64,000 nucleotides of DNA from UHGV virus genome UHGV-1384413. One strand, given 5' to 3'. The DNA comes from a virus. The notes below the pieces were generated by a model. It saw nothing but the letters and a program-made list of their open reading frames with translations. It ran no database searches and was not told the origin of the DNA. Both the position numbers and the translations under genes were made by a program. Shown piece after piece: positions 13,325 through 17,672 of the stretch; positions within the stretch are counted from its first letter, which is position 1; every line of letters starts with the position of its first letter.

Positions 13325-13399
13325 GCCCTGTTAGCTTAGTGGATAAAGCAGCGGCCTTCTAAGCCGTTGACACTGGTTCGAGTCCAGTACGGGGTGCCA
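13325..13399 (+). tRNA. tRNA-Arg (anticodon TCT)
   Basis: Manual cloverleaf: acceptor gccctgt/acggggt, D stem gctt/aagc, anticodon loop cuUCUaa, T loop ttcgagt, CCA encoded. Confidence 0.7.
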
Positions 13400-13403
13400 A
13401 ATT

Positions 13404-13490
13404 GGGGAGTTATCCCGTAGAGGTAGCGGTGTAGACTGTAAATCTATTGTCATTGCGACTCGGGTGGTTCGACTCCACCACTCCCCACCA
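13404..13490 (+). tRNA. tRNA-Tyr (anticodon GTA), long variable arm
   Basis: Acceptor ggggagt/actcccc, anticodon loop cuGUAaa, variable arm tgtcattgcgactcg, T loop ttcgact, CCA encoded; D stem imperfect. Confidence 0.65.
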
Positions 13491-13604
13491 AATTTACATT
13501 TTTAAATGCATAAATTATACAGATAATGACATTGATATTTATCGTCGTTTATACTAGTCACTAACTGCTCGAAAATCAGTGTCATTATCAGTGTAATTTA
13601 TAAA

Positions 13605-13695
13605 GGAGAGTAGGGAGCAATGGTGCTCAAGCGGTCTTGAAAACCGTCCCATTGAGGACGACTTGATGATGGTTCGATTCCATTACTCTCCGCCA
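13605..13695 (+). tRNA. tRNA-Ser (anticodon TGA), long variable arm
   Basis: Acceptor ggagagt/actctcc, anticodon stem gcggt/accgt with loop cuUGAaa, 20-nt variable arm, T loop ttcgatt, CCA encoded. Confidence 0.65.
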
Positions 13696-13793: not shown

Positions 13794-13890
13794 GCTAGGT
13801 AAGCCCTTTGGCAAGGGCGAGGATTTTTAATCCTGAAAATAGACGAGGTAGTCGTTGAATACATAGGTGGTTCGATTCCATCACCTAGCA
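13794..13890 (+). tRNA. atypical tRNA-like gene (best fit anticodon TTT, Lys-like) with ~30-nt variable region
   Basis: Perfect 7-bp acceptor gctaggt/acctagc and canonical T arm ggtgg-ttcgatt-ccatc, but the anticodon arm is 4 bp plus a G.G pair around loop uuUUUaa, followed by a 30-nt stem-loop region; no CCA. Confidence 0.4.
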
Positions 13891-13896
13891 CCTTTT

Positions 13897-13972
13897 GCTG
13901 ATGTAGCACAATTGGCAGTGCAATTGATTTGTAATCAATAGGTTGCAGGTTCAAGTCCTGCCATCAGCACCA
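13897..13972 (+). tRNA. tRNA-Thr (anticodon TGT)
   Basis: Acceptor gctgatg/catcagc, anticodon stem attga/tcaat with loop uuUGUaa, T arm gcagg-ttcaagt-cctgc, CCA encoded. Confidence 0.7.
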
Positions 13973-13973
13973 T

Positions 13974-14048
13974 GGCCCTGTAGCTGGAAGGTTCAAGCAA
14001 GCGACTCATAATCGCCAGACGGTGGTTCAATTCCACCCAGGGCCACCA
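13974..14048 (+). tRNA. tRNA-Met or tRNA-Ile2 (anticodon CAT)
   Basis: Acceptor ggccctg/cagggcc, anticodon loop cuCAUaa, T arm ggtgg-ttcaatt-ccacc, CCA encoded. Confidence 0.65.
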
Positions 14049-14059
14049 AATAATAAATA

Positions 14060-14136
14060 CTCCGCGTAGCTCAGCTTGGTAGAGCGCCTGATTTGGGATC
14101 AGGAGGTCGAGTGTTCGAATCACTCCGTGGAGACCA
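14060..14136 (+). tRNA. tRNA-Pro (anticodon TGG)
   Basis: Acceptor ctccgcg/cgtggag, D arm gctcagcttggtagagc, anticodon stem cctga/tcagg with loop uuUGGga, CCA encoded. Confidence 0.7.
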
Positions 14137-14558: not shown

Positions 14559-14957
14559 ATGATTTCAGTTTTAACATTGATGAGTAAACACAGAGGGATC
14601 ATAAAAGGTTTAGTTTTTGCAGCGGCTATAGGCATGGCTTATCTTGGGGCCGTGTATTGGTTTAACTCTAAGCTCAATGATGCTTATCAAGAAGGTGTGT
14701 TAGCAACAGAGTTAAAGTGGGAACGGATCCTTGACCAACAACAAAAGCAGGCCGACAAAATTAAAATGGGCCACGCAGAGGAGGTTAAAAACCTTGAAAA
14801 ATCTCTTTCTGATCTACAGGATAAATTAAATATGGCTGAGAAGGCAGGTAAAGAAAAGCAGATTATCTACCTCCAATCTCCTGAAGGTAAGAAGTCAACA
14901 CTTCCTGATCAGCTAATAGATATTTATAATGAGAGTATCAATCAGGAGGTTCGATGA
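14559..14957 (+). CDS. i-spanin-like protein (inner-membrane anchored, coiled-coil)
   Basis: 132 aa; N-terminal TMD GLVFAAAIGMAYLGAVYWF then charged helical periplasmic region; stop overlaps the next start (ATGA). Confidence 0.5.
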   Translation: MISVLTLMSKHRGIIKGLVFAAAIGMAYLGAVYWFNSKLNDAYQEGVLATELKWERILDQQQKQADKIKMGHAEEVKNLEKSLSDLQDKLNMAEKAGKEKQIIYLQSPEGKKSTLPDQLIDIYNESINQEVR

Positions 14958-15241
14958 GAGTTACTGCACTGGTTGTTTTGTGCTTGTTATTGTGTGGGTG
15001 TGCAACCAGCGTTGAGAGAGAATACAAGATTGACCCTCCGGATGTAGGAAGGTTGATTGTTAAACCTCCCGAGGGTGCTATGAAACCACCTGCTAAAGCT
15101 ATCCCTTTGAAGAAAGGTGCGCCAGATGCGGTGAATTCTGGCATTATGAGGGATAATAACCTGTCTTGTAGTAATGATAGGGCTAAATTGATCATTTTGC
15201 AAGACTATATAAGAACACTGTTTCCAAAGGAGAGAGGTTAA
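14954..15241 (+). CDS. o-spanin-like lipoprotein
   Basis: 95 aa; signal peptide ending in lipobox-like LLCGC, proline-rich mature part; coupled to the i-spanin gene. Confidence 0.5.
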   Translation: MRVTALVVLCLLLCGCATSVEREYKIDPPDVGRLIVKPPEGAMKPPAKAIPLKKGAPDAVNSGIMRDNNLSCSNDRAKLIILQDYIRTLFPKERG

Positions 15242-15666
15242 TGTCTAAGATTTACGGACCGTGTTCTGAAAAGCAGAAGATGATCCTAGAGAACGATGCA
15301 GATATTTTGGTGATCGGAGGTGCAGCTGGGTCTGGCAAGTCGTTCCTCTTGCAGCTAATGCCGCTTAAAATTATTGATGACCCGCACAGCTCTGTGGTTA
15401 TGTTCCGAAGAACAACTCCCCAGTTGGAAGGTGAGGGTGGGCTATGGCCTAAAGCAGTAGCTATTTACAGTGATCTGCCTGAAAACATTAAACCAAAGTT
15501 CAGAGAGAAGGATCATAAGTTTATTTTTCCACGGTTTGATCCGAGCACTGGCAAGTGGGATAGGAGCAAAAAGGGGGCCGTTGTAAAATACTGCCACATG
15601 GAGTATGTCCAAGATAAGCTTAACCATCAAGGCCTTGAGTACACCATGGTTTGCTTCGATGAGGGT
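15241..15666 (+). CDS. terminase large subunit, ATPase N-terminal part (exon 1)
   Basis: Walker A GGAAGSGKS; ORF ends straight after Walker B MVCFDEG with TAA at 15667. Confidence 0.7.
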
Positions 15667-16550
15667 TAATTTGTAGCTCTCGTAAAACCTCCCTAATTGC
15701 GGGGAAATCTTTATTATTGACACCACCAACCTGTCATGGTAACATGATAGAGGCTTCGAAGAGAGATCGAAGGTATGGTAACAGTGTGTTAATTTAGATA
15801 ATCCGCAGCGAAGCATCCGAGAGGATGAACGTTCAACGACTAGTCGAAAGACGTAGAATCAAGCGATTCGAAACGGGAGGGTGAATGTGTAATACTAAAA
15901 AAATGTATGGATTGCCAAAGAGTTCTGCCTCTTGATGATTTCTTTTTATCATCTAAGAGCAAGGATGGATACTCAGGTACATGCAAGGAATGCTATATGT
16001 ACTACAGGAAGAATGGATCTCGTAGAAACAAAAATATGGTTAAGAGAGATGATGCAGCATCTTTTGTTCAAGACTTGCTGAAGAAAGGTGAGCTTTTTGA
16101 ATGTAAATCTTGTCATGAAAGTATGCTTGCTGATAGTTTTTACACAAAGCGTGACTATGGTAAAGTGTATCTGGTTACGAACAGGTGTAAGATGTGTGAA
16201 AAGTTTTATCAGATTGAGAAGAAATTTCACATAACAAAAGATGAATACTATCGTTTACTCTCAGATCAAGATCATAAGTGTGCCATTTGTAGAATATCTC
16301 TTGATGAGTATAGGACGCAAGGGTACAGAGATTTCTTTTGTGTTGATCATGACCATAAAACTGGTGCTGTAAGAGGGTTGCTTTGTGATAAATGCAACAG
16401 AGCTTTAGGGTTCTTCCAAGAGGATGAGGAAACCATTCTTAGAGCAGCAGAGTATTTGCACATTCATAAGATATAGTCTGGTCTGCATGGAGACATGCAG
16501 CTGCCTGAAAATGGCGGGGCAAGACTAGCGACCTTGCCCGAACATAAACG
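15667..16550 (+). mobile_element. probable group I intron (boundaries approximate) carrying an HNH homing endonuclease ORF
   Basis: Interrupts the terminase reading frame right after Walker B; ORF-free flanks 15667-15906 and 16477-16550 contain hairpins such as gggcaag/cttgccc; stop at the 5' junction, candidate omega-G at 16550. Confidence 0.5.
15907..16476 (+). CDS. HNH homing endonuclease
   Basis: 189 aa; several CxxC pairs and canonical FCVDHDHKTGAVRGLLCDKCNRALG HNH core. Confidence 0.75.
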   Translation: MDCQRVLPLDDFFLSSKSKDGYSGTCKECYMYYRKNGSRRNKNMVKRDDAASFVQDLLKKGELFECKSCHESMLADSFYTKRDYGKVYLVTNRCKMCEKFYQIEKKFHITKDEYYRLLSDQDHKCAICRISLDEYRTQGYRDFFCVDHDHKTGAVRGLLCDKCNRALGFFQEDEETILRAAEYLHIHKI

Positions 16551-17672
16551 ACGCAATTCGAATGGGAGCAGATAGACTACCTGATGTCTCGTTTGCGATC
16601 TCAGTCAAAGTATCCATCAAGAATGGTTATCAGCTGTAACCCCGACTCAGAACACATGCTTGCCAAACTGGTTAGGTGGTGGTTGGACGATGAAGGGTAT
16701 CCAGATCCGGAGAAATGTGGTAAGAAAAGATATTTTATCCGACGCGACGGTGAATTTATTTGGGGAGACTCTAAAGAAGAGTTAATAGAGAAATACACCA
16801 CGGTTAACGGACTGGGTGTGGAGATCAAGCCAAGACCGTTGTCATTCTCGTTTATAGGCGCAACAATTTTCGATAATCCTGTCTGCTTGAGAGACAACCC
16901 AGAATACCTTGCTTTCCTTGAAGGTCTGCCAGAGCTTGAAAAAGCCCAGCTTCTTCATGGAAACTGGTTTGCCAAACCTGAGGGTGCAAACTATTTCCAA
17001 AGATCTTTCCTTCGGGATGCCGATAGAGTACCTCTTGGATCAGTATCTTGCAGGGCATGGGATAAGGCAGGAACCGAGAGAACTTCCGGTAATAAATTTC
17101 CTGACTTTACTGCCAGTGTTAAGGTAAGTAAAGATAGCGACGGCTTTTATTACCTGTCCGGGGATTATTGTCCTGAGAACGTGGATGACGGTAGGTATTC
17201 CACAGGTCTGGAAGGAAAGTTCTGTAAAAAGGCTGGGGAACGAGATGTGATCATCAGGAAACAGGCGCAGTTTGATGGAGATGATTGCATAATCGTATTT
17301 TCTGTGGACCCCGGTCAGGCAGGTAAGAGTGAGTTCTTAACCTCGTCCAGATCCTTGCTCGCCGAAGGGTTCAGGGTTGAAGAAGATCCAATGCCTTCCA
17401 ACAAATCTAAGCTGACAAGGTTCTCACCTTTTGCCAATCTTGCCCAACAAGGAATGGTGAGGATTGTAAAATCCAGTTTCCATCCTGACACTCTGGAAGC
17501 ATTTCTGACTGAACTTGAAAAGTTCAACGGGGAAAGATCAACATTTAACAGAAAAGACGACTGGGCCGACTGTGTAGCTTCTGCGATTAATTTCCTGGAG
17601 AAAGAGGAGGTAGCGCTGCCTTGTGTGATTCCATCAATCTCATCACCTTCTATGTTCAAGCGTTTTATCTAA
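16551..17672 (+). CDS. terminase large subunit, nuclease C-terminal part (exon 2; 5' boundary approximate)
   Basis: Frame open from 16548; TQFEWEQIDYLMSRLRS..VISCNPD continues the ATPase C-motif region, then a nuclease-domain-like region FSVDPGQAGKSEF. Confidence 0.6.
   Translation, partial: TQFEWEQIDYLMSRLRSQSKYPSRMVISCNPDSEHMLAKLVRWWLDDEGYPDPEKCGKKRYFIRRDGEFIWGDSKEELIEKYTTVNGLGVEIKPRPLSFSFIGATIFDNPVCLRDNPEYLAFLEGLPELEKAQLLHGNWFAKPEGANYFQRSFLRDADRVPLGSVSCRAWDKAGTERTSGNKFPDFTASVKVSKDSDGFYYLSGDYCPENVDDGRYSTGLEGKFCKKAGERDVIIRKQAQFDGDDCIIVFSVDPGQAGKSEFLTSSRSLLAEGFRVEEDPMPSNKSKLTRFSPFANLAQQGMVRIVKSSFHPDTLEAFLTELEKFNGERSTFNRKDDWADCVASAINFLEKEEVALPCVIPSISSPSMFKRFI

Follow-up and report, generated by a model that had tools for sequence, protein, structure and literature searches.

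Why does the gene for the large terminase subunit (terL) of the virus genome UHGV-1384413 stop immediately after its Walker B motif, and how can its reading frame resume far downstream? In the window, by which we mean the whole 64,000-nucleotide (nt) stretch of DNA that was analyzed, an open reading frame (ORF) of 142 amino acids (aa) at 15241-15669 ends in ...EYTMVCFDEG and then TAA. The frame of a 362-aa ORF (16584-17672) is open back to 16548 and reads a stop, TTQFEWEQIDYLMSRLRS and, further on, VISCNPD. An earlier note, made from the letters of this DNA, had described the stop after MVCFDEG and a gap of 884 bp before the frame resumes toward VISCNPD, and had seen in it a probable group I intron encoding a 189-aa HNH endonuclease. 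The stop and the gap are both confirmed here: the former is the TAA at 15667-15669, the latter runs from 15667 to 16550 by alignment with the phage ECP2303. Judged by model match, helices, natural alleles and covariation, the 884-bp insert is a group I intron, as the published record on related phages also indicates (PMC3606486, PMC6083498, PMC7344957). We are highly confident that it is a mobile phage intron of the IA type that carries a homing ORF in the terL of an rV5-like Vequintavirus.

Boundaries, fold and covariation of the insert

The region 15241-17672 has 96-98% identity to the terminase region of rV5-like coliphages (genus Vequintavirus), with phage ECP26 as its top match (98.2%). 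Natural alleles in this group delimit the insert. The intron-less terL of ECP2303, a comparison of the kind that the earlier note had suggested, lacks exactly the 884 bp of window positions 15667-16550, and the final missing base is G16550, the omega-G of the intron. At the same site, the intron of the phages rV5, LL12 and RudolfGeigy measures 319 bp; these phages lack 565 bp (15896-16460 in the alignment), and their whole P8 hairpin is swapped for an unrelated 18-nt hairpin, AAGCG-AUUGUUGU-CGCUU. The intron-less and the ORF-less alleles give identical boundaries to the base:

15241-15666, plus strand: terL exon 1, the N-terminal part of the ATPase, with its boundary taken from the intron-less allele
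15667-16550, plus strand: group I intron of 884 nt (Rfam RF00028), the exact stretch absent from ECP2303
16551-17672, plus strand: terL exon 2, the remaining ATPase (TQFEWEQ..., VISCNPD) and the RNase H-like nuclease domain

Exon 1 has the Walker A motif GAAGSGKS and the Walker B motif with the catalytic Glu, MVCFDE-G; its last codon is GGT, of which the T is the splice-site U. The TAA lies directly past the 5' splice site and the insert has 10 in-frame stops. When 15666 is joined to 16551, a 515-aa ORF results that is colinear with its homologues, and the predicted exon junction after removal of the 884 nt is ...GAUGAGGGU followed by ACGCAAUUC.... In the joined protein the Pfam domain Terminase_6N spans residues 25-294, across the junction, and is followed by Terminase_6C. 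Alignment with uninterrupted terminases from IMG/VR (30-69% identity) is gapless where FDEG meets TQFE.

The covariance-model search and the folding of P1-P9 that the earlier note had proposed were both carried out. The Rfam group I model (RF00028) matches 15657-16500 on the plus strand with 50.9 bits (E 5.3e-10 for 64 kb) and is covered in full (positions 1-253). A scan of the whole 64-kb window with Rfam (E <= 1) found no second group I intron beyond this match. The ORF-less copies of the same intron score considerably more, with 84.9 bits in rV5, 79.4 in LL12 and 84.0 in RudolfGeigy. All helices from P1 to P9.2, with the exception of P2, which is absent, were located from the Rfam alignment and by explicit folding:

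15661-15668 with 15674-15681, plus strand: P1 hairpin, the second strand being the internal guide sequence; wobble U15666.G15676 at the 5' splice site
15688-15693 (CCUCCC) with 15875-15880 (GGGAGG), plus strand: P3
15698-15832, plus strand: P4-P6 domain, minimum free energy -44.4 kcal/mol
15698-15703 with 15802-15807, plus strand: P4
15707-15799, plus strand: P5 with a long three-way extension
15808-15832, plus strand: P6/P6a
15838-15842 (GACUA) with 16474-16478 (UAGUC), plus strand: P7
15843-15852, plus strand: P7.1 hairpin
15856-15869, plus strand: P7.2 hairpin
15883-15889 (GAAUGUG) with 16459-16465 (CACAUUC), plus strand: P8 stem, the endonuclease gene filling its loop
16466-16478, plus strand: J8/7 (AUAAGAUA) and the 3' strand of P7, matching the Rfam consensus AGAUAUAGUC
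16483-16500, plus strand: P9, with a GAGA loop
16501-16517, plus strand: P9.1
16518-16538, plus strand: P9.2, with the loop ACUAGCGAC
within 16483-16549, plus strand: the 3' tail GAACAUAAAC, which precedes the omega-G, the terminal G at 16550

The conserved core is present, including the P3-P8 pseudoknot, the P4-P6 domain, P7 with J8/7, J3/4, J6/7 and P9; J8/7 together with the 3' strand of P7 is the most conserved segment of the group I core. The hairpins P7.1 and P7.2, between P7 and the 3' strand of P3, are the peripheral pair typical of the phage introns of subgroup IA. Because both are present, the fold groups the intron with these IA-type elements. The P5 extension also holds a match to a sigma-70-like promoter (15717-15745, sense strand, upstream of the endonuclease ORF), with TTGACA, a 17-nt spacer, TAACAT and an upstream TG (10/12). 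We do not rely on this match, since it is one to the consensus only and since the TTGACA box and a near-identical spacer are also found in the P5 extension of the ORF-less alleles.

Covariation was tabulated over nine introns from five lineages. Besides the lineage of the window, these comprise the second terL intron of Vequintavirus (rV5, C7, RudolfGeigy), the terL intron of the Certrevirus CB7, and two IMG/VR contigs, L020 (4284-4515) and L021 (4330-4555), which have ORF-less group I introns in terminases 33-35% identical to that of the window. Rfam scores across the lineages are 75-96 bits, with 76.4 for L020 and 75.5 for L021. Helices were tabulated by hand and anchored on the conserved junctions; MAFFT mis-registered the 5' half, where P2 and the P5 extensions differ. 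Canonical pairs fill 444 of the 450 cells across the five lineages, compensatory double changes occur at 34 of 50 helix positions, and the U.G pair at the splice site is kept in all nine introns. In P7 a U-A pair is replaced by C-G in L020, the P7.2 stem covaries at four of its five positions, and covariation is also seen in P4 and P5. The P8 stem is wholly different in sequence between ORF-less and ORF-containing alleles, yet remains paired in both. We take the covariation as support beside the model scores, rather than as independent proof.

The endonuclease gene and its start

What does the intron encode? The note had called the product a 189-aa HNH protein. A homing-type ORF is indeed found; it belongs, more precisely, to the Endonuclease VII-motif branch of the His-Me finger superfamily. 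Its length is also 189 aa as read here, with the caveat that this is a truncated form in which a frameshift cuts off the normal start. Two features are needed to follow this:

15907-16476, plus strand: ORF for a homing endonuclease with an Endonuclease VII motif (bba-Me, or His-Me finger), 189 aa as read
15897-15903, plus strand: homopolymer run of seven A (A7), one A more than in the A6 copies

The Pfam family Endonuclease_7 (PF02945) matches residues 103-185 of the 189-aa ORF (E 2e-21). The catalytic domain is intact and its motif is present, with CAIC (C125-C128), DHDH (147-150) and CDKC-N (C160-C163 and N164), and the N-terminal part has two CxxC...CxxC repeats of the zinc-ribbon type. The best matches in PDB are Hpy99I (E 1.4e-5, residues 55-185) and T4 endonuclease VII. 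In the phage collection, close copies (at least 96% identity) occur only in 30 Vequintavirus terL introns, and the next relative has 40% identity. The ORF is 97.4% identical to the protein of JES-2013, which has been listed as an intron-encoded homing endonuclease with an Endo VII motif, in a family founded by F-CphI (PMC6083498). Endo VII-like sequences were also found under 'terminase' features in the actinophages KR080200, KR080194, NC_028934 (mycobacteriophages AlanGrant and Vincenzo) and MH976519 (Gordonia phage Tangent), with 35.5-39% identity to the C-terminal part of the ORF and 57-62% query coverage. They could represent another terminase-associated Endo VII insertion or a fusion.

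The gene is tightly interlaced with the ribozyme. Its stop TAG (16474-16476) lies inside the 3' strand of P7, and its final codons cross the 3' strand of P8, J8/7 and the 3' strand of P7. At the other end, the ancestral start, ATG 15885, is within the 5' strand of P8, and the 3' strand of P3 (GGGAGG, 15875-15880) is a Shine-Dalgarno-like sequence that ends 4 nt before this ATG. From ATG 15885, the A6 copies of ECP26, DrSchubert and JES2013 have a full-length ORF of 196 codons, and a 591-bp ORF is annotated in four further records, including APECc02, HdK5 and rV5_ev146.

In the window this frame is broken. With A7, only 16 codons can be read from 15885 before a stop, and translation from 15907 would lack a Shine-Dalgarno-like sequence and give a product without Cys2 and Cys7, which belong to the first zinc-ribbon-like motif. 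Seven other ORF-containing copies were read at this run: five have A6, Gotham has A5 and one was unreadable. Runs of A5 and A7 alike break the 196-codon frame; a further copy, in the IMG/VR sequence L008, has A6 and nevertheless a premature stop at codon 89. The additional base is peculiar to the window: among the 30 ORF-containing records, it alone has a region length of 2432, compared with 2431 in 28 others and 2430 in Gotham (spans of 3410 bp were counted as 2431 plus a 979-bp second intron). The endonuclease of the window is, from its reading frame, probably poorly expressed or N-terminally truncated, and the ribozyme part is intact. A7 is explained either by an endonuclease gene that has begun to decay or by a sequencing error in the homopolymer. 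It is also possible that the A-run is not damage at all and acts as a slippage-prone switch that tunes the expression of the endonuclease.

Allele states, proposed homing and competing explanations

A terL of this type is found in about 120 phage records, of which about 67 are intron-less and 53 have the intron; among the latter, 30 have the ORF and about 23 are ORF-less. An evenly spaced sample of 60 records has the same proportions of the three states. Scanning IMG/VR with the spliced terminase gave 15 loci, which added few close alleles and several useful distant ones. The site itself differs between states: exon 1 ends in GGT in 13 of 13 intron-containing alleles and in GGC or GGA in all nine intron-less ones.

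The exons and the intron of the window have different nearest relatives. Exon 1 is identical to that of the intron-less ECP2303 at 424 of 426 positions (99.5%), and the sole differences, GAA GGC to GAG GGT, are at the junction; its identity to the exon 1 of every intron-containing relative is only 94-95%. The intron, in contrast, is 99.0% identical to that of ECP26, whose exons have diverged. Exon and intron therefore have different histories. Such decoupling is the signature predicted by homing with a short co-conversion tract, and it is indirect evidence that the intron reached this phage by homing. If the homing was recent, the tract in exon 1 may have spanned 4 nt or more but not as much as about 33 nt: at about 33 nt from the junction, the first marker farther upstream still has the state of the recipient. 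In that case the endonuclease gene may have started to decay, through the A7 frameshift, straight after the invasion.

How would such an element work? We propose that terL is transcribed as a single pre-mRNA, in which the intron RNA would fold, its guide pairing with the end of exon 1 (P1, U15666.G15676) and a free guanosine being bound in P7. By analogy with catalysis in the family, two transesterifications would then remove 15667-16550 and join GGU to ACG, yielding ...MVCFDEG-TQFEWEQ... and the complete 515-aa terminase. The TAA past the 5' splice site would halt ribosomes on unspliced RNA. In a mixed infection, the endonuclease encoded in the P8 loop is expected, as in other members of its family, to cut an intron-less terL near the insertion site, and repair of the cut would copy the intron in, i.e., homing. 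For the normal ORF, the folded ribozyme should also mask the region of initiation, because the Shine-Dalgarno-like sequence is the 3' strand of P3 and the AUG is in the P8 stem. The T4 td intron and its endonuclease I-TevI provide a precedent for such masking.

The intron very probably self-splices, and the alternative raised by the earlier note, a split terminase, is disfavored. In that scheme the insert would stay in the RNA, and the 142-aa ATPase piece and a C-terminal piece would be translated separately and assemble. Many GenBank records do give two 'terminase large subunit' coding sequences (CDSs) flanking the endonuclease gene, and exon 2 offers an in-frame ATG at 16584, 11 codons in. 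Starting there, though, would lose TQFEWEQIDYL, which is conserved and aligned in all homologues, and none of the five in-frame starts in the first 150 nt of exon 2 has an upstream Shine-Dalgarno-like sequence. The break would also fall immediately past the catalytic Glu of Walker B, in the middle of a single ATPase fold, and the conservation of a complete ribozyme core with covarying pairs would be left unexplained. As about half of the close relatives have an uninterrupted gene and splicing in vivo is documented for a related terL intron (PMC7344957), we give this explanation a very slight chance. Slightly less remote, and still highly improbable, is that the intron splices and the Endo VII-like protein serves packaging as an accessory nuclease, like the HNH protein of HK97-like phages, instead of homing. 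The location of the ORF inside a terminase gene, the Endo VII-like matches under 'terminase' annotations in some actinophages, and the documented cooperation of HNH proteins with terminases (Kala et al. 2014, cited in PMC7344957) would fit such a role. Yet the ORF is missing from about 75% of the close relatives (intron-less and ORF-less together), which package DNA normally, and frameshifted copies (A5, A7, internal stop) occur in propagated isolates. The pattern of presence and absence and the decoupled histories of exon and intron fit a selfish element, and the ORF falls in an 'endonuclease' clade with the characterized homing enzyme F-CphI and with Hpy99I (PMC6083498).

We regard as negligible the probability that the insert is another kind of element, namely an intein, a group II intron, or a free-standing homing endonuclease gene without a ribozyme, even if Vequintavirinae commonly have inteins and free-standing HNH genes (PMC7344957). 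An intein is excluded by the TAA directly after exon 1 and the 10 in-frame stops across the insert. No group II family came up in the Rfam scan at its E-value threshold, where the insert matches the group I model only. As for an element without a ribozyme, the 319-nt insert of the ORF-less alleles still matches the group I model with 79-85 bits, and the ribozyme therefore exists independently of the ORF. Some observations do count against the reading that we prefer, a mobile, self-splicing IA-type intron with a homing ORF. The 50.9 bits of the window copy barely exceed the gathering threshold of 50, a low score due to the ~570-nt ORF looped out of P8 and to the absent P2. P10 is weak, with 3-4 bp (15669-15673 with 16554-16558), and begins 3 nt into exon 2. 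For the covariation table, the alignment was anchored by hand and adjusted to the structure that we propose. Splicing of terL in this phage is deduced from sequence rather than from RNA. Finally, the normal start of the endonuclease is lost in the window, possibly through a sequencing error, and the activity and target of the enzyme are predicted.

Related elements and what they imply

The closest known systems are the terL introns of rV5 and other Vequintavirus phages, which share the gene, the insertion site and the intron RNA; the copies of ECP26, DrSchubert and JES2013 are 97-99% identical to that of the window. In rV5 and LL12 the intron has the identical position, but is of the ORF-less form. 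The rV5 paper devotes a section to 'Introns in terminase' and acknowledges D. Shub's assistance with finding the intron (Kropinski et al. 2013, PMC3606486). A joined terL has been annotated in LL12 (PMC6658697) and in the BASEL collection (PMC8594841), and in DrSchubert (MZ501060) and rV5_ev146 the annotated terL CDS is already joined, with a 'putative homing endonuclease' within it. Among these copies, the window is set apart by its unique A7 and by exons of the otherwise intron-less ECP2303 lineage. It also differs from rV5 in the number of introns: rV5 has two in terL, the first without an ORF, whereas the window has the first only, with its ORF. The second site is the following:

16867/16868, plus strand: vacant site of a second terL group I intron, empty in the window

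In rV5, HdK5 and others this site holds a 979-bp intron with a different HNH gene (rV5 gp066) in P6, and in C7 and RudolfGeigy an ORF-less form of about 267 bp (Rfam 87-96 bits). The two terL introns have a near-identical P9 and related 3' domains. An insert of the size of the 979-bp intron also occurs in several UNVERIFIED 'Campylobacter phage' records. There are 18 records under this host label in the range MG065646-MG065682 (e.g., L005). They are classified as Vequintavirus, their terL is 95-97% identical to that of E. coli Vequintavirus phages, and those inspected are UNVERIFIED and unannotated. The host label is probably wrong.

Reverse transcription-PCR and cDNA sequencing have demonstrated splicing of the terL intron of the Pectobacterium phage CB7 (Certrevirus, Vequintavirinae; PMC7344957). 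This intron shares with the window the phage subfamily, Walker B as the target, and a homologous 3' domain (P9, P9.1, P9.2 with a UAGCGA loop, and the tail GAACA.AAA.G). It differs in its point of insertion, which separates D from E and lies 6 nt upstream of the G/T site of the window, in encoding another HNH type with the ORF in P6, and in having P2 and an extended P7.1. The 3' architecture of the window's intron recurs in CB7, L020, L021 and the second intron of rV5. CB7, L020, L021 and the window have in common the 3' tail GAACA(U/A)AA(A/U)G and the P9.2 loop (U)UAGCGA (UUAACGA in L020), and their insertion points are all at or beside Walker B: between QG and I in L021, between D and E in L020 and CB7 (L034, 385-1347), and between DEG and T in the window. 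These resemblances suggest that the four introns are one family that settled at several positions around Walker B.

More distant introns share parts of this design. By BLAST, the 3' 79 nt are 83.5% identical to the td introns of T-even phages, 109 nt have 70.6% identity to the T4 nrdB intron, and similarity extends to introns of phiKZ and other phages. Like the T4 introns td, nrdB and sunY (IA2), the intron of the window has a P7.1/P7.2 core, an endonuclease ORF looped from a peripheral helix, a stop soon past the 5' splice site, and an insertion point in sequence that encodes a conserved catalytic site. It differs from them in lacking P2, in its long P5 extension, in having the ORF in P8 and not in P6 or P9.1, and in its host gene, which is a late packaging gene and not one of nucleotide metabolism. 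The T4 endonucleases are of the GIY-YIG type (I-TevI, I-TevII) or of the HNH type of I-TevIII, in contrast with the Endo VII motif found here. The motif Cx2C...DHDH...Cx2C-N is shared with the family of F-CphI (cyanophage S-PM2) and with Hpy99I (PDB 3FC3), whose alignment over residues 55-185 takes in the zinc-ribbon repeat. F-CphI is free-standing beside an intron, unlike the ORF of the window. Identity to the characterized Endo VII-type enzymes is low, and cleavage by the Vequintavirus protein is predicted by analogy. Other group I introns in terL, some with HNH-type ORFs, some multiply inserted and some with demonstrated self-splicing, are in hosts and terminase lineages unrelated to those of the window.

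The surroundings of terL are those of an rV5-like phage, with a tRNA cluster and the genes of i-spanin and o-spanin upstream and the portal gene downstream. The o-spanin ORF (region 14954-15243 of the window) stops at TAA 15239-15241, overlapping by one base the ATG of terL (15241-15243), and a strong Shine-Dalgarno-like sequence for terL (AAGGAGAGAGG) sits within the o-spanin gene. Between 13325 and 14133, six tRNA genes score above the Rfam gathering score and the cluster matches that of rV5:

13325-13396, 13406-13485, 13794-13890, 13897-13969, 13974-14045 and 14060-14133: six tRNA genes

A seventh tRNA-like element, at 13604-13692, is below the threshold (tRNA-Sec model, 40.5 bits).

What do these results mean for the phages concerned? 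The feature is real, well supported at the level of sequence, and already known: the terminase introns of rV5 were reported in 2013 and the endonuclease was classed as intron-encoded in 2018. The window is one more, slightly unusual, allele of this element, with the ORF, exons of the ECP2303 type, A7 and an empty second site, and this terL intron adds no fundamental novelty. There are practical consequences. Where three CDSs are called, two 'terminase' fragments and a 'recombination endonuclease VII', as happens in many GenBank records of these phages, the annotation should become one joined terL and an intron-encoded homing endonuclease. Phylogenies of Vequintavirinae terminases should mask the intron and a few flanking bases.

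A bolder reading, which we put forward tentatively and consider rather unlikely as a whole, would combine a very recent homing event into an intron-less terL lineage with the settlement of one ribozyme family at three or more positions in or next to the Walker B sequence. The positions QG/I, D/E and DEG/T may have been reached by this family in terminases that are about 30% identical, with different types of endonucleases lodged in different loops. If this is true, the terminase family would be a natural system for the retargeting of introns and endonucleases within one conserved motif. For the genus Vequintavirus itself, the alleles place side by side the empty site, the invasion, the decay of the endonuclease ORF and its loss, so that the life cycle of a mobile intron can be followed in textbook form.

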